Of a stretch of 26,449 bases of DNA, positions 5,974 through 26,449 are shown in pieces (position 1 is the stretch's first letter; every line of letters begins with the position of its first letter). Source of the stretch: a virus; UHGV virus genome UHGV-1509762; one strand, written 5' to 3'. The notes under the pieces are model-generated. The model was not told the origin of the DNA and did not search any database. It saw only the letters and a program-made list of their open reading frames with translations. Made by a program: the position numbers and the translations under genes.

Positions 5974-5987
5974 CAATAATGATTGAC

Positions 5988-6018
5988 ATGCTTGATTTTG
6001 TATTCACAAATCAAGCAT
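5988..6018. repeat. Perfect 11-bp inverted repeat (ATGCTTGATTT / AAATCAAGCAT, 9-nt spacer) preceded by TTGACA; candidate operator or regulatory hairpin upstream of the methyltransferase
   Basis: Seen directly at 5988-5998 and 6008-6018, with TTGACA at 5983-5988. Lies in the gap between gene A and the methyltransferase start. Confidence 0.6.
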
Positions 6019-6084
6019 CAAGTAAACATCGATGATGAGAAAGAACAATGCTACAATCCCCACAGCATTAGAAGGAGGTTTATC

Positions 6085-7134
6085 TTGATTAAGGTTGTTG
6101 ATTTATTCTGTGGCGCGGGTGGCTTGACTCACGGTCTTCAGAAGTCGGGGCTTAATGTAGTTGCAGGTTATGATATAGATGCAGCCTGTCGATTTGCCTA
6201 TGAGACAAATAATAAATCACTCTTTGTCCAGAAAAGTGTTACAGACATTGAGGACGGCGAATTAGTTAAATATTTCGAAGGAGCGAAGGTTCGAGTTTTG
6301 GCTGGTTGTGCCCCATGCCAACCTTTTTCAAGCTATACCAATAGTGCTAAATTAGGGGTAGTACGTTCAAAAGATAAAAGATGGTCTTTGCTTTATAGCT
6401 TTGCTAAGCAAATTAAATTTGCAAAGCCAGATATTATTACAATGGAAAACGTTCCCCGAGTGGTGAATCATAAGGTTTTTAAGGACTTCATTAAGTCTCT
6501 TAAAAATGATGGCTATTTTGTTTGGTATGGGGTGGTGTTTTGTCCAGACTATGGAATGGCACAAAGTCGTTCAAGATTAGTGTTATTGGCATCAAAATAT
6601 GGAGAAATAGAAATAATTCCACCAACTCATGAGAAGAATGATTATAAAACGGTGCGAGATATAATCGGTAATCTTCCTGAAATTAGTGCCGGTGCTGTTC
6701 ACGCTGGAGATAAACTACATCGCTCTGCATCATTATCTGATATTAATATAAAAAGAATAATGGCATCAAAACCTGGTGGAACATGGCGTGATTGGCCAGA
6801 AGAGCTAAGAGCAAAATGTCATACAAAAGAAAGTGGTTCTACATATACTGCTGTATATGGGAGAATGTGTTGGGATAAACTTGGACCGACAATTACAACT
6901 CAATGTATTGGATATGGGAATGGACGCTTTGGGCACCCTGTCCAAAATAGAGCATTAAGTTTAAGAGAGGCTGCGCTATTACAGTCATTCCCAGAAAAGT
7001 ATGAGTTTTGGCCTGATGATGTAAAAATTGAAATGAGAACAGTTGCGCGTTTAATAGGTAATGCTGTTCCTGTTAGGCTTGGTGAGGTCGTAGGTGAAAC
7101 TATTTTAAAACATTTGTCAGAAATGAATATTTAA
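6085..7134 (+). CDS. DNA (cytosine-5)-methyltransferase
   Basis: C5-MTase motifs in canonical order: motif I LFCGAGG (FxGxGG), motif IV GCAPCQPFS (catalytic PCQ), motif VI ENV (ITMENVPRV), motif VIII QSRSR, motif X GNAVPV. Start set at the TTG at 6085 because a GAAGGAGG RBS lies 6 nt upstream and motif I follows within about 10 residues; the N-terminal extension of the track ORF (from 5983, also TTG) is low-complexity. Confidence 0.9.
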   Translation: MIKVVDLFCGAGGLTHGLQKSGLNVVAGYDIDAACRFAYETNNKSLFVQKSVTDIEDGELVKYFEGAKVRVLAGCAPCQPFSSYTNSAKLGVVRSKDKRWSLLYSFAKQIKFAKPDIITMENVPRVVNHKVFKDFIKSLKNDGYFVWYGVVFCPDYGMAQSRSRLVLLASKYGEIEIIPPTHEKNDYKTVRDIIGNLPEISAGAVHAGDKLHRSASLSDINIKRIMASKPGGTWRDWPEELRAKCHTKESGSTYTAVYGRMCWDKLGPTITTQCIGYGNGRFGHPVQNRALSLREAALLQSFPEKYEFWPDDVKIEMRTVARLIGNAVPVRLGEVVGETILKHLSEMNI

Positions 7135-7175: not shown

Positions 7176-9134
7176 TTAGATTCCCTCAACTATTTTCATA
7201 ATTCTAGCTGCATCATTCTTTTTGTCTTGATATTCAGCATAGGCTTGTTTTGATTGCACGATTAGGTCATTATATGTCAATATTTTTCCATTGATAGAAA
7301 GTAATTGCATATTTATAAAGTGTTGGTTCTCTTGTAAATATCCAGAGCCAACCAGGAATATTACTTCTATATGCGGTATATTTCCACCTGGGCAATTTTT
7401 AGGGTTATTGGAGAACCATTGTGTCGTTGCCTGTACATATTTATTACCTTGTGCGACTAGGTTCATTATATCTGGGTGCACTTTAGGTCGTTTCATCTCA
7501 ATAATTACATGCTTGCCAGAAACGGTTTTGAAAGCGATATCAATACGAGCACCGCTAGCAGCATCAGGGTTTATCTGTTTTAGTTCCTTGGTCAATGTTT
7601 GCTCCATAACAGATGTGCCTGTGACTCTTTCCCATGAAGGATCCAATAACCATAAATGATCATATAAATACATTTGTACAGCTCTTTCAAGCTGATTTTC
7701 ATCAGTTATTTTTTGGAATTTTTCAATTACTTTAAGGCGTTGCGAAGTAATTTCATAAAACATGCTTGCTTCAATGTCATTGACAGATGCAAATACATCT
7801 TTAAAATTTTCTGATTGAAGGTTGCTTATTTTATCTAATGCATCAAGGTTGTCTTGAATTCTAAGTCTTTCAAAGGCTAATACCGTATTTTTTAATACGG
7901 TTTTTCTTGCTGCTTTTTGTTCTTCCTCATTACCAGAAAAACGGAATGTGTTTACTCGTCCAATTAACTTTTCGGCACTTTCTCTCTCATGTTTTTTGAG
8001 AGAATTCAGCCATTCACTTACTATTGGAGTATTGCTTTTAACTTCATTTACTCCTTTTTCGCGTCTCCATTTATCCCAATCTTTATCGATTAGTTGTAGC
8101 GTTCTTTCCAGAAAACCTTTAAGTACAGGGTATCTTGGATCATTCTGTTGTAGTTTTTGACGAGAAGATGTTGCCATATCAGGCTTTTCGTTATCATCTA
8201 GAAAATCGGCGACTATTTCACCGACCAGATAATTGGTGAATACTTTAGCACTTCCAAATTCTAATAATATGTCCTCCTCAAAAACACGTCCGTGAGAGAT
8301 TACAGTAATGCTGTTGTTAGATATTTCAGGGTCTTTCTTTAACTGTGATGGCTTAACTACACTGCCAATGTACCCACTAACTTTTACATCTTTTCCTTCA
8401 AAGGTAATAGTATTTGGTAATATGTTTTTTTGTGTGATGTTTGTGCAGGATTTTATCCTTTCAGGGTCGGATTCGCCAAATTCCCAAATGAACTCGAGAT
8501 CTGAAAGGAAATCTCTATCTGCCGGTGTAATATCGGTCCCATTAATTTTAACTGTAAAGTTATGGTTGGGGCCAATAATGCTAAATCGACGAGCTATTCG
8601 CTTTCTGAGGTAAGTTTGAGTCCTATCAATGGCTTTTTTTAGTTCAAATAATTTAATTGTAGTGCCGTAAGCAAGATTTTCGGGTATTTCAAGGGAGTCA
8701 GCAATATAGTTTTTTGATTCTTTGATACTTTGCTGTAAATCTTTGACATCTACCTCAAAGGCCTGAGGCTGTTCCCCCTTTTTGTACGAATAAACTTGGA
8801 TTTTATTGGCAAGTGAAAACATGGCAAGCTTACCAATACCTTTTCTGCCCATAACTTGACGTTTTAGATGATCGCTTTTGGCTCTTCCATGTTCCCTGCG
8901 AGCATAACCGACTTTTAGGAACTTATTAATAATGTCATCTTTAGACATGCCATGACCATCATCTTTAATGATGACCTCTCCTTTCTCAACATCAAGTGTA
9001 ATTTCTACATTTTGAGCATCTGCATCCCATGCATTTGATATAATCTCAGTTAGTACCGCGGGAGTATTGGAATAGAGACTCATCCCTAGGTGATTTAGCA
9101 CATTCAAATCAATTTTAATTTCGAAATCTGACAT
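7176..9134 (-). CDS. GHKL-family (MORC/MutL/Hsp90-like) ATPase with a C-terminal PD-(D/E)xK-like nuclease motif; putative ATP-dependent restriction or defence nuclease
   Basis: N-terminus carries the Bergerat-fold motifs: N box EIISNAWDADA (E30, N34, D37), G1 box IKDDGHGM (DxGxG), G2 box GRKGIGK. The C-terminal segment ARIDIAFKTVSGKHVIIEMKRPK has a D ... ExK arrangement (D532, E546, K548; DNA 7491-7541) consistent with a PD-(D/E)xK nuclease core. AAGGAA RBS precedes the ATG at 9134. The gene is AT-rich relative to the phage backbone. Confidence 0.85.
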   Translation of the reverse strand: MSDFEIKIDLNVLNHLGMSLYSNTPAVLTEIISNAWDADAQNVEITLDVEKGEVIIKDDGHGMSKDDIINKFLKVGYARREHGRAKSDHLKRQVMGRKGIGKLAMFSLANKIQVYSYKKGEQPQAFEVDVKDLQQSIKESKNYIADSLEIPENLAYGTTIKLFELKKAIDRTQTYLRKRIARRFSIIGPNHNFTVKINGTDITPADRDFLSDLEFIWEFGESDPERIKSCTNITQKNILPNTITFEGKDVKVSGYIGSVVKPSQLKKDPEISNNSITVISHGRVFEEDILLEFGSAKVFTNYLVGEIVADFLDDNEKPDMATSSRQKLQQNDPRYPVLKGFLERTLQLIDKDWDKWRREKGVNEVKSNTPIVSEWLNSLKKHERESAEKLIGRVNTFRFSGNEEEQKAARKTVLKNTVLAFERLRIQDNLDALDKISNLQSENFKDVFASVNDIEASMFYEITSQRLKVIEKFQKITDENQLERAVQMYLYDHLWLLDPSWERVTGTSVMEQTLTKELKQINPDAASGARIDIAFKTVSGKHVIIEMKRPKVHPDIMNLVAQGNKYVQATTQWFSNNPKNCPGGNIPHIEVIFLVGSGYLQENQHFINMQLLSINGKILTYNDLIVQSKQAYAEYQDKKNDAARIMKIVEGI

Positions 9135-21235: not shown

Positions 21236-23995
21236 ATGAGCACGAAATTTAAAACCGTTATCACTACTGCCGGAGCCGCGAAGCTGGCAGCCGCCACTGT
21301 TCCCGGCGGGAAAAAAGTAAACCTGTCTGCAATGGCTGTGGGTGACGGTAATGGCCAATTGCCGGTGCCGGATGCCGGTCAGACGAAACTGGTGCATGAA
21401 GTCTGGCGTCATGCCCTGAATAAAGTCAGTGTGGATAACAAGAATAAAAACTATATCGTGGCTGAACTGGTTGTTCCGCCAGAAGTGGGCGGCTTCTGGA
21501 TGCGTGAGCTTGGTCTGTATGACGATGCCGGAACACTGATTGCGGTATCCAACATGGCAGAAAGCTATAAGCCAGAACTGGCTGAAGGCTCCGGACGTGC
21601 GCAGACCTGCCGCATGGTTATTATTCTCAGCAACGTGGCGTCCGTTGAGCTGAGTATTGATGCCAGCACAGTGATGGCGACGCAGGATTACGTCGATGAC
21701 AAAATCGCAGAGCATGAGCAGTCCCGCCGCCATCCTGACGCCACGCTGACAGAAAAAGGTTTTACTCAGTTAAGCAGTGCAACAAACAGCACCAGTGAAA
21801 AGCAGGCTGCAACGCCAAAGGCAGTAAAAGCAGCCTATGACAATGCTGAGAAACGTCTGCAGAAAGACCAGAACGGTGGCGATATTCCAGATAAGGACGC
21901 TTTTCTGGACAATGTTGGCGTTACCAGCCTGACGTTTATGAAAAACAATGGCGAAATGCCGCTTGATGCTGATCTGAATACATTTGGTCCCGTTAAGGCT
22001 TATCTGGGAATCTGGTCTAAAGCTACCTCAACTAACGCAACACTGGAGAAAAATTTCCCGGAAGATAATGCTGTCGGTGTGCTTGAGGTTTTTGCTGCCG
22101 GCAATTTTGCAGGTACGCAACGCTTCACCACGAGAGACGGCAATGTATACATACGCAGACTCGCCAATAAGTGGAATGGCTCTGATGGTCCGTGGGGCAT
22201 ATGGCGTCACACTCAATCAGCTACCCGCCCTTTGAGTACGACTATAGACCTGAATACGCTTGGAGCCGCCGAACATCTTGGTTTATGGCGTAACAGTAGC
22301 TCGGCTATAGCTTCATATGAACGCAATTATCCAGAGGAAGGCGGCTTTGCTCAGGGGATGCTTGAGATCCTCGAAGGCGGAAATTATGGAAGAACGCAAC
22401 GTTATACCACTCGCCGTGGAAATATGTATGTCCGCTGCCTTGCGGCAAGCTGGGATGCATCAAATCCGCAGTGGGAACCGTGGTTAAGAGTCGGTCATCA
22501 GTCAGAGAGTCGTTATTACGAAGGTGATTTGAATGATGTAACCTCACCAGGTATTTACAGCGTTACAGGTAAAGCGACCAACGGTCCAGTACTGGACGGA
22601 AACGGCGTGACTGTACTCGGCATTCTGGAAGTGTTGAGGCGGTTTGATGGTGTTAATGTATGGCAGCGTTATACAACTGCCGGAACAGGTACAACCCTTA
22701 AAGGCCGCACCTTTGAGCGCGTCTTTACCGGCAGCTCATGGAGCGAATGGCGGGAAGTCTACACCTCGTATTCACTTCCCCTGAATCTGGGTATCGGCGG
22801 TGCTGTGGCAAAGCTCACCAGACTGGACTGGCAGACCTACGATTTTGTGCCGGGCAGTCTGATAACCGTTAGGCTGGATAATATGACCAATATTCCCGAC
22901 GGTATGGACTGGGGCGTCATTGATGGCAACCTGATAAACATCGCAGTTGGTCCGAGTGATGATTCCGGTACGGGGCGCTCAATGCATGTATGGCGCAGCA
23001 CTGTAAGTAAAGCGAACTACCGATTTTTTATGGTGCGTATTTCAGGAAATCCGGGAAGCCGCACGATCACAGCAAGACGAGTACCAATCATTGACGAAGC
23101 CCAGACATGGGGCGCGAAACAGACATTCAGTGCTGGCCTTTCTGGTGAACTGTCCGGCAATGCGGCGACAGCAACAAAGCTGAAAACAGCCCGTAAAATT
23201 AATAACGTTTCGTTTGATGGAACATCAGATATTAACCTGACGCCGAAAAATATTGGTGCATTTGCTTCAGGAAAAACAGGAGACACCGTTGCGAATGATA
23301 AAGCCGTTGGGTGGAACTGGAGTAGCGGAGCCTATAACGCAACTACTGGTGGGGTATCAACGTTAATTCTTCATTTTAATATCGGTGAAGGAAGTTGTCC
23401 CGCCGCCCAGTTCCGCGTTAATTATAAGAACGGCGGTATTTTTTATCGTTCTGCTCGTGACGGTTACGGATTCGAGGCTGACTGGTCTGAGTTTTATACC
23501 ACAACGCGAAAACCTACAGCGGGAGATGTCGGTGCACTGCCGTTATCTGGTGGTCAATTGAATGGTGCTCTGGGTATAGGAACATCCAGTGCTCTTGGCG
23601 GTAATTCGATTGTTTTGGGTGATAATGACACGGGCTTTAAACAAAATGGTGATGGTAATCTGGATGTTTATGCTAATAGCGTCCATGTTATGCGCTTTGT
23701 CTCGGGAAGTATTCAAAGTAATAAAACCATAAATATTACGGGGCGTGTTAATCCCTCGGATTACGGTAACTTTGATTCCCGCTATGTCCGGGATATCCGG
23801 CTTGGTGGTGCTGCCACATACAAACCTGCGAACAATGGCATGACATGGACACATCAGGCACCGTCCGGGTGTGTATATTCCGGCATTATTGTTCAGGATA
23901 CCGGCTCAAACTCTGCCGATAACATTGGTGGTGTATATTACAGACCGGTTCAGAAATACATTAACGGGACATGGTATAACGTGGCGCAGGTATAA
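21236..23995 (+). CDS. H: Tail fibre protein (P2 gpH-like N-terminus with an extended, repeat-containing distal part)
   Basis: 919 aa. The N-terminal 200 or so residues (TVITTAGAAKLAAAT ... ATNSTSEKQAATPKAVKAAYD) resemble P2 H; the rest is longer than P2 H (669 aa) and contains three tandem degenerate repeats of about 90 aa. Confidence 0.9.
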   Translation: MSTKFKTVITTAGAAKLAAATVPGGKKVNLSAMAVGDGNGQLPVPDAGQTKLVHEVWRHALNKVSVDNKNKNYIVAELVVPPEVGGFWMRELGLYDDAGTLIAVSNMAESYKPELAEGSGRAQTCRMVIILSNVASVELSIDASTVMATQDYVDDKIAEHEQSRRHPDATLTEKGFTQLSSATNSTSEKQAATPKAVKAAYDNAEKRLQKDQNGGDIPDKDAFLDNVGVTSLTFMKNNGEMPLDADLNTFGPVKAYLGIWSKATSTNATLEKNFPEDNAVGVLEVFAAGNFAGTQRFTTRDGNVYIRRLANKWNGSDGPWGIWRHTQSATRPLSTTIDLNTLGAAEHLGLWRNSSSAIASYERNYPEEGGFAQGMLEILEGGNYGRTQRYTTRRGNMYVRCLAASWDASNPQWEPWLRVGHQSESRYYEGDLNDVTSPGIYSVTGKATNGPVLDGNGVTVLGILEVLRRFDGVNVWQRYTTAGTGTTLKGRTFERVFTGSSWSEWREVYTSYSLPLNLGIGGAVAKLTRLDWQTYDFVPGSLITVRLDNMTNIPDGMDWGVIDGNLINIAVGPSDDSGTGRSMHVWRSTVSKANYRFFMVRISGNPGSRTITARRVPIIDEAQTWGAKQTFSAGLSGELSGNAATATKLKTARKINNVSFDGTSDINLTPKNIGAFASGKTGDTVANDKAVGWNWSSGAYNATTGGVSTLILHFNIGEGSCPAAQFRVNYKNGGIFYRSARDGYGFEADWSEFYTTTRKPTAGDVGALPLSGGQLNGALGIGTSSALGGNSIVLGDNDTGFKQNGDGNLDVYANSVHVMRFVSGSIQSNKTINITGRVNPSDYGNFDSRYVRDIRLGGAATYKPANNGMTWTHQAPSGCVYSGIIVQDTGSNSADNIGGVYYRPVQKYINGTWYNVAQV

Positions 23996-23998
23996 TTT

Positions 23999-24526
23999 AT
24001 GCAGCATTTAAAAAATATTACGGCGGGTAATCCAAAAACGGTTGAACAATATCAATTGACAAAAGACTTTGATGTTGTCTGGTTTTTTTCAGAAGATGGT
24101 AAGAACTGGTACGAAGAACAAAAGTATTTTGCTGATGACACGCTAAAAATAGCGTACGACAAAGATAATATCATCCGCTATGTGGAAAAGGATGTGACAG
24201 CTATCAGACCGGATGGATTAAGTGTTGTTGAAGTGGCGGATATTACTGCTAACCGACGGGCGGACATTTCAGGGAACTGGATGTTTAAGGACGGCAAAGT
24301 GATTAAACGCATTTATACGGCAGAGGAATTGCTGCAGCAGGCAGAAAACCGGAAAGCCAGACTTCTTGCAGATGCTGAATCCGTGATTTTGCCGCTGGAG
24401 CGCGCGGTCAGACTGAACATGGCAACAGATGAGGAGCGTAGCCGACTGGATGCATGGGAGCGTTACAGCGTTCTGGTCAGTCGTGTGGATCCTGCAAATC
24501 CTGAATGGCCGGAAATGCCGCAATAA
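23999..24526 (+). CDS. G: Tail fibre assembly chaperone (P2 gpG-like)
   Basis: 175 aa immediately downstream of H; same length and position as P2 G. Confidence 0.85.
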
Positions 24527-24747: not shown

Positions 24748-25341
24748 ATGTTTACTAAGCGACGATTAAAAAATATTAACTGGGAGGCAAGTTCAGTGAT
24801 TCTTGCTATGGTTCTCTTTGTTGGAAATATATTTTATACAAATCATCGTGATGATATAACTATGGAGGCTGAGAGGGACAGTATCAGAACAATGTTTGCA
24901 TATGAAATCGCTAATAACCATCGCGCTCTCACTTTTCTTGATAAAACGAGATATATTGGCTTTGACGAAAATTCGGAGCATTTTGTTGGCGAGCCTTTTG
25001 CCATTAATGTCAAATCATTAGGGGGGCCTCGCTTACAGATTGCATTAAACCAGACTGATAAAGTGTTTAAATCCTACTTCAGCGAATTAAGTAAGCTTGA
25101 TAAAGAGGATGTTACTCTTCTTATGGACTATTACCATGAGCAAAGCATCCTGCTGGAGCGTGTAAAATCTACGTTACAGAAGATGAAAAGTGGTAATGAT
25201 ATTAAAGTTGATATTGATGGTTACTTATTAGAAGAACACTTCATGAATGAGCTTAATCTTTCTAATATTTTGCTTAAACGCTATAGCCATTTGTTGTCAC
25301 AACACGCCAAAGAACATAAAACAAAAGATTTACATAATTGA
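24748..25341 (+). CDS. Hypothetical membrane-anchored protein of unknown function (cargo gene at the G-downstream hotspot)
   Basis: 197-aa ORF in a visibly AT-rich island; TAAGGTG RBS just upstream of the ATG; N-terminal basic stretch then one hydrophobic helix (SSVILAMVLFVGNIFY), remainder charged. No family recognised. Confidence 0.6.
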   Translation: MFTKRRLKNINWEASSVILAMVLFVGNIFYTNHRDDITMEAERDSIRTMFAYEIANNHRALTFLDKTRYIGFDENSEHFVGEPFAINVKSLGGPRLQIALNQTDKVFKSYFSELSKLDKEDVTLLMDYYHEQSILLERVKSTLQKMKSGNDIKVDIDGYLLEEHFMNELNLSNILLKRYSHLLSQHAKEHKTKDLHN

Positions 25342-25593: not shown

Positions 25594-26449
25594 GGATTTG
25601 CCCCTATATTTCCAGACATCTGTTATCACTTAACCCATTACAAGCCCGCTGCCGCAGATATTCCCGTGGCGAGCGATAACCCAGCGCACTATGCGGATGC
25701 CATTCGTTATAATGCTCGAACGCCTCTGCAAGGTTCTTTGCTGCCGTTAACCCGTCTGGTTTGGGCATGATACTGATGTAGTCACGCTTTATCGTTTTCA
25801 CGAAGCTCTCTGCTATTCCGTTACTCTCCGGACTCCGCACCGCCGTGTTCTTCGGTTCAAGTCCCAACATCCGGGCGAACTGGCGTGTTTCATTAGCCCG
25901 GTAGCATGAACCATTATCCGTCAGCCACTCCAGTGGAGACGACGGAAGATCGTTGCCGAAGCGGCGTTCCACCGCTCCCAGCATGACGTCCTGTACTGTT
26001 TCACTGTTGAAGCCGCCGGTAGTGACCGCCCAGTGCAGTGCCTCACGATCACAGCAGTCCAGCGCGAACGTGACACGCAGTCTCTCTCCGTTATCACAGC
26101 AGAACTCGAACCCGTCAGAGCACCATCGCTGATTGCTTTCTTTCACGGCCACTCTGCCTGTATGTGCCCGTTTCGATGGCGGTACAGCAGGTTTTCGCTC
26201 AAGCAACAGCGCATTCTGGCGCATGATCCGGTAAACACGTTTGGCATTGATCGCAGGCATACCATCAAGTTCTGTTTGTCTGCGAAGCAGCGCCCATACC
26301 CGACGATAACCATACGTGGGCAGCTCTCCGATAACATGGTGTATACGGAGAAGCACATCCGTATCATCAGTGTGACGACTGCGGCGGCCATCCATCCAGT
26401 CATCGGTTCGTCTGAGAATGACGTGCAACTGCGCACGCGACACCCGGAG
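25594..26449 (-). mobile_element. IS2 insertion sequence (IS3 family), partial, inverted orientation, truncated by the window end
   Basis: The terminal sequence TGGATTTGCCCCTATATTTCCAGACATCTGTTATCACTTAA at 25594-25634 is the reverse complement of the IS2 right inverted repeat as I recall it; followed by the IS2 orfB (InsD) coding sequence on the minus strand. Confidence 0.9.
25604..26449 (-). CDS. insD: IS2 transposase OrfB (InsD), 5' end outside the window
   Basis: 279-aa track ORF is recognisable as E. coli IS2 InsD over its whole length ([29 protein letters not shown] ... [33 protein letters not shown]); the true N-terminus and orfA lie beyond 26449. Confidence 0.92.

Follow-up and report, generated by a model that had tools for sequence, protein, structure and literature searches.

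Knob domains were first defined in the fibres of the R1 and R2 pyocins (PDB 6CL5 and 6CL6; Buth et al. 2018, PMC6116203). These fibres are trimeric and carry two knobs in tandem in their middle part, followed by an iron-containing shaft and a lectin foot, and their receptor-binding tip is separate from the knobs and needs a chaperone. According to a fibre atlas, the pyocin knob is a mobile pseudo-domain found across six fibre classes (PMC12143355). Among the P2-like phages, the fibre of the Yersinia phage L-413C has been described as a mosaic (Garcia et al. 2008, as cited in PMC7460101). In T6 and other Tequatroviruses of the T2/T6 type, the distal subunit of the long tail fibre is gp37, which has a gp36-binding N-terminus at the knee end and carries the gp38 adhesin at the end of the fibre. 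At its N-terminus the pyocin fibre has a P2-like attachment domain.

The locus studied here lies in a stretch of 26,449 nucleotides, called here the window, of a viral genome (UHGV-1509762). The window corresponds to a P2-like prophage, with integrase, gpA, portal, terminase, capsid, lysis and tail genes. The tail-fibre gene H, of the L-413C type (21236..23995, plus strand), is an open reading frame of 919 aa located after the baseplate genes J and I and before the fibre-assembly gene G (23999..24526, plus strand). The latter was identified by a match to the Pfam model PF02413 Caudo_TAP (E 2e-34), and its place is that of G in P2 and L-413C. The DNA of H is 99.9% identical to that of Peduovirus P22H1 and to that of the record OU784746, named 'Peduovirus P2'. 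Twenty-eight phage records span at least 80% of the gene, and its repeat region is found at a coverage of at least 80% in 276 of the 5426 complete E. coli genomes. A scan of genome contigs returned one locus, in Escherichia ruysiae, a figure that says nothing on taxonomic spread as the patterns used were narrow.

Several other genes of the window were also recorded. Between gpA and the portal gene, at the position of the old/tin moron locus of P2, a gene encoding a C5 cytosine DNA methylase (5983..7134, plus strand; PF00145; PADLOC MTase_II/DrmMII, E 1e-90) is convergent with one encoding a 652-aa GHKL-ATPase protein (7176..9134, minus strand; PADLOC 'REase_II', E 3e-91), and this pair has the appearance of a restriction-modification or defence cassette carried by the prophage. 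Just downstream of G, at the position of the P2 Z/fun locus, a 197-aa open reading frame (24748..25341, plus strand) matches phrog_3829, a family of unknown function, over its full length (E 3e-137). It gave no match in Pfam, NCBIfam or PADLOC, and is possibly a moron or defence gene. Finally, a transposase reading frame with HTH_21, rve and rve_3 domains (25604..26443, minus strand) reaches the end of the window. An insertion sequence appears to separate the fibre genes from FI, the expected gene for the tail sheath, and the prophage may be interrupted at this point.

The sequence-only reading had proposed that H contains three tandem repeats of about 90 residues, and this was confirmed by blastp, Smith-Waterman and hhalign comparisons. 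Units 1 and 2 are 45% identical over 80 aa (blastp E 2e-25), with a Smith-Waterman z of 33 (2000 shuffles). The three units start in frame at 21971, 22247 and 22526 (aa 246, 338 and 431) with the residues DLNT, DLNT and DLND, as had been reported, and have in common the motif order DLN, G-x-(Y/W), LEV, QRYTT, R and W-x-x-W. Two details of position had to be corrected: the end of unit 3, put at 22773, lies at about 22795 (aa 520), and the repeats, described as part of a distal region, occupy the middle of the protein (aa 246-520 of 919). A unit HMM marked exactly three domains in H (246-337, 338-429 and 431-520); as the units of the window are themselves part of the model, it sets the boundaries and is not an independent test. 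The units are designated here K1 (aa 246-337; 21971..22246), K2 (aa 338-430; 22247..22525) and K3 (aa 431-520; 22526..22795), all on the plus strand. At the DNA level the units have diverged, again as stated before, since TRF detected no tandem repeat and blastn aligned just 52 nt, at 71%, between units 1 and 2; a recent duplication was rejected on this ground.

K3 is the most divergent and the most polymorphic of the three units. Its pairwise scores with units 1 and 2 are weak (z 2.6-2.9) and were reached by 33-50 of the 2000 shuffles, a marginal result that would suit a duplicated pair followed by an unrelated domain resembling it by chance. We regard such a chance resemblance as very improbable, however, because the profile of unit 3 aligned in register and over its full length with a profile of units 1 and 2 made from 13 homologues (hhalign P 3.2e-5), and because K3 has the motif order and the predicted strand order of K1 and K2. 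In addition, a mixed-unit profile with K3 as reference row matched pyocin Knob2, although this profile was made from all three units and is thus no test of K3 by itself. The kinship of K3 with K1 and K2 is therefore a matter of profile and fold evidence, not of pairwise similarity.

The units had not been recognised as a known domain in the sequence-only reading. No Pfam or NCBIfam model covers aa 246-520 of H, and the knob identity was thus drawn from custom profile and fold searches. The pyocin fibres were missed by a PDB sequence search with the whole of H as query and were found by the unit profile only, which matched the R1 and R2 pyocin fibres 6cl5 (E 1e-7), 6cl6 (E 1.2e-6) and 6ct8 (E 4e-5), aligning with Knob2 over its full length and with Knob1 in part. 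The same profile also matched the tail fibre gp47 of Pa193. An AF2 model of aa 236-525 (pLDDT 75) gave one predicted secondary-structure pattern across the three units, each of which is made of a short helix at DLN and about five beta strands, and when this model was used in a Foldseek search, the top two ranks went to 6cl5 and 6cl6 (E 7e-6 and 3e-5). The AF2 models represent single chains at moderate confidence, and the packing of one unit against another in them is not meaningful.

With their profile similarity to Knob1 and Knob2 of the R1/R2 pyocin fibres and their predicted antiparallel beta-sheet of 5 or 6 strands with variable surface loops, the three repeats are knob domains in tandem, of the kind originally described from these fibres. 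In agreement with this assignment, close homologues bear the NCBI name 'pyocin knob domain-containing protein'. As in the pyocin fibres, the knobs of H stand in tandem mid-fibre and apart from the tip. By contrast, H has three knobs, nearly back to back, where the pyocin fibres have two; the knobs of the two fibres are just ~20% identical in sequence; and in H they are followed by a domain called here domain X, a Mu S'-like domain and a tip of the P2/Mu S type in the place of the iron-containing shaft and the lectin foot.

The other domains of H, all on the plus strand, were delimited as follows. The N-terminal baseplate-attachment (tail-collar fibre) domain (aa 1-151; 21236..21688) corresponds to PF12571 (E 1.9e-57), and a phage tail fibre repeat upstream of the knob block (aa 170-210; 21743..21865) corresponds to PF03406 (E 6e-21) and matches residues 110-176 of Mu S. 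Downstream of the knobs, domain X is a small beta domain (aa 521-625; 22796..23110) delimited by alignment with T6 gp37 and modelled by AF2 with a pLDDT of 70. It is followed by a conserved linker motif, ...GNAATATKLKTARKINNVSFDGTSDINLTPKNI (aa 630-673; 23123..23254), 66% identical to aa 63-106 of T6 gp37, then by a gp37_C or Mu S'-like domain (aa 672-768; 23249..23539) which matches PF12604 (E 1.9e-5) and residues 321-417 of PDB 8ju3 (E 1.3e-47), and lastly by a C-terminal tip of the P2 H / Mu S type (aa 770-919; 23543..23992). This tip also matches residues 425-503 of Mu S (5yvq, E 1e-12) and the short tail fibre 9cuy (E 2.8e-18). For folding, tips of the P2 H / Mu S type rely on a chaperone of the Caudo_TAP kind. 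Domain X always stands right after the three knobs and belongs to the part shared with T6 gp37. Its best Foldseek matches, the phi812 RBP, AS12 gp42 and the R1 pyocin fibre, are fibres with knobs but were not significant (E 0.07-0.2), and comparison with the knob profiles by hhalign gave no similarity (P 0.18-0.35); the predicted fold weakly hints that domain X might be a fourth knob.

H is collinear from end to end with gpH of L-413C (NC_004745, 913 aa), with 76% aa identity, and the gene order I-H-G is the same in this phage. The collinearity runs from the P2-type N-terminus to the tip and is continued by G (Caudo_TAP), and L-413C gpH has three knobs at the coordinates of those of H, with the same domain X, linker and Mu S'-like domain. 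The differences are found in K1 and K3, which are divergent alleles (51% and 47% identity, respectively), and in the last ~65 residues of the tip. By contrast, the likeness to P2 gpH (NC_001895, 669 aa) is limited to the ends of the protein; the gene order of P2 is that of the window. The first 204 aa are 84% identical, and the last ~150 aa are 39% identical, with the tip motif ...YINGTWYNVAQV in common. BLASTP aligned these ends only, without homology across the central shaft of P2 H (aa 205-470). The middle of H (aa 205-770) is unrelated to P2 gpH, in which the knob HMM detected no knob. The proposed difference from P2 H was thus substantiated, as was the excess length of 250 aa (919 versus 669 aa).

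When the sequence-only reading was followed up by comparison with other P2-like H proteins and with T-even gp37, a block common to L-413C gpH and T6 gp37 came to light. Residues 105-520 of T6 gp37 are 55% identical over 465 aa to residues 226-640 of H, a segment made of K1, K2, K3 and domain X, whereas gp37 of T4 is devoid of it. A tblastn search with the three-knob segment returned 229 phage records, mostly gp37 of Tequatroviruses such as T6, RB32 and RB14, with ~62% identity over the full segment. H shares just this internal block and the linker motif with T6 gp37; it has neither the gp36-binding N-terminus nor the gp38-carrying C-terminus of the T2/T6-type protein, its N-terminus being P2-type and its tip P2/Mu S-type. 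The place of the block also differs, as it is mid-fibre in H and near the N-terminus, at the knee end, in T6 gp37. The linker motif adjoins the block in both proteins: the sequence GNAATATKLKTARKI..(V/I)SFDG..DI.LTP closely follows the block in H and closely precedes it in T6 gp37, and GNAATATKLKTARKINNVSFDGTSDINLTPKNI is also present upstream of the knob block in the homologue P0003. This location on opposite sides of the block in H and T6 gp37 fits a recombination joint, and the linker motif (aa 630-673) is likely to serve as such a joint in the shuffling of fibre modules. K1, K2, K3 and X form a fixed block of ~415 aa (aa 226-640), bordered by conserved linker motifs, which has moved whole between L-413C-type gpH of P2-like phages and gp37 of T2/T6-type phages. 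These results support the earlier suggestion that the repeat region was acquired, here by horizontal exchange of the block.

The sequence-only reading had offered expansion by duplication as another origin of the repeats. Exactly three knobs were counted in each of the 81 related loci from viral and genome collections, the proteins of which are 840-1264 aa long, have several N-termini and fall into at least 9 tip clusters. Moreover, when H of the window, L-413C H and T6 gp37 were compared, units in the same position were 51-68% (K1-K1), 60-67% (K2-K2) and 35-50% (K3-K3) identical, against 18-44% for units in different positions, and K2 of the window was 67% identical to K2 of both T6 gp37 and L-413C H. 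The constant number of knobs and the positional orthology of the units show that the triplication predates all these fibres and do not support an expansion in this lineage: the triplication is ancient, and the block was acquired whole. It should be noted that K1 of the window is nearer to K1 of T6 gp37 (68%) than to that of L-413C (51%), though L-413C H is far closer overall, suggesting that beyond one transfer of the block, alleles of single knobs have been exchanged repeatedly between T-even and P2-like fibres.

Variation was analysed over the first 660 aa of H in 46 alleles. The knobs are the most polymorphic part of this region, with mean allele identities of 0.86 (K1), 0.84 (K2) and 0.77 (K3) compared with 0.98 for the N-terminus and 0.94 for domain X, and the identity between alleles of K3 falls as low as 44%. 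Variation is greater outside the predicted strands (Mann-Whitney p 0.027). This variability would be in keeping with a knob block acting as a genuine additional site of receptor binding and setting host range, in which the alleles of K1 and K3 would read sugars of the LPS core or O-antigen independently of the tip. The pyocins offer a precedent, as Knob2 shows more diversity than any other region of R-pyocin fibres and has been proposed to determine the killing spectrum (PMC6116203), and in Pseudomonas phages the similarity of Knob2 correlates with host spectrum (PMC12625404). Nevertheless, a search for positive selection at the level of whole domains gave no support, dN/dS being 0.10-0.14 in every knob. 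Synonymous divergence is deep (dS 0.55-1.06), and the overall pattern fits old, recombining alleles under purifying selection; the polymorphism of the knobs could simply reflect old recombined lineages.

Three further lines of evidence argue against the knobs as the determinant of host range. First, L-413C and P2 vir1 depend on the same parts of the Y. pestis LPS core, namely the terminal GlcNAc and the heptose region (PMC3182234), although the former has three knobs and the latter none. Second, the block of T6-type gp37 is close to the knee, a long way from the gp38 adhesin. Third, the tip (aa ~770-919) reassorts independently on a constant knob block: a single knob-block cluster (at least 93% identity) occurs in combination with four to six tip classes, and the alleles of Yersinia phages agree with the window as far as nt 2552, with differences confined to the extreme end. 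These three observations point to the tip, and not the knobs, as the primary determinant. It is thus unlikely that the knobs form a host-range-setting second site, and the earlier description of the repeats as a host-range determinant in the receptor-binding part of the fibre is doubtful, the more so as they stand mid-fibre. For P2-type fibres, the determinant of host range has been located at the far C-terminal end (PMC5285337); the fibre in that study (P88/pro147) has no knobs, so that it is relevant to the role of the tip only. The C-terminal tip is probably the primary receptor-binding end of H.

If the knobs do not set host range, they could be purely structural, that is, spacer beads that give the fibre length and stiffness and act as folding nuclei for the trimer, with no ligand bound. 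The copy number fixed at three, the purifying selection and the mid-shaft or knee-proximal position are all compatible with such a role, and Buth et al. have argued that knob domains assist trimeric fibres in folding (PMC6116203). This explanation, however, does not account for the polymorphism of the knobs, which greatly exceeds that of the N-terminus and domain X on either side, and saccharide binding has been proposed for the related pyocin Knob2 and shown for the beta-prism of K1F (PMC6116203). A strictly structural role is therefore conceivable, but we lean against it. By analogy with the proposal made for pyocin Knob2, an auxiliary sugar binding by the knobs would be allowed, and the knobs are most likely mid-fibre beads, perhaps with such an auxiliary activity, that are not the main determinant of host range.

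Taken together, these data lead us to propose, with good confidence, that H carries a mobile K1-K2-K3-X block whose knobs form beads in the mid-shaft, primary receptor specificity being left to the tip. In this model each knob would fold as a 5- to 6-stranded antiparallel beta-sheet with surface loops and, the fibre being a homotrimer, three copies of a knob would assemble round the axis into one globular bead. In the virion the block would then form a beaded, stiff mid-shaft segment, making the fibre longer than that of P2, and might help to keep the trimer in register and to fold it. The variable loops, chiefly those of K3 and K1, may bind LPS sugars at low affinity and thereby orient the fibre, as has been proposed for pyocin Knob2, while primary receptor specificity would reside in a C-terminal tip that is distinct from the block and folds with the assistance of gpG. 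A bolder version, which we consider unlikely, is that K1-K2-K3(-X) constitutes an independent, exchangeable second sugar-binding module whose alleles, chiefly those of K3 and K1, tune host range or adsorption kinetics, with X as a cryptic, highly diverged fourth knob. If this were true, fibres of the L-413C and T6 types would be bipartite receptor readers directed at different LPS cores or O-antigens.

As H is nearly identical to genes of sequenced phages and close homologues of its repeat region are already named for the knob, the feature is an ordinary one, in which a mobile tail-fibre domain that is already known is repeated in tandem. Earlier publications cover the type of domain, its occurrence in tandem within fibres and its movement from one phage family to another (PMC6116203, PMC12143355). 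The practical value of the present analysis is in annotation and engineering, for which the boundaries of the block and the flanking linker motifs provide natural joints for the construction of chimeric fibres, and, since block and tip vary independently, the tip would be the part to concentrate on when a fibre is retargeted.
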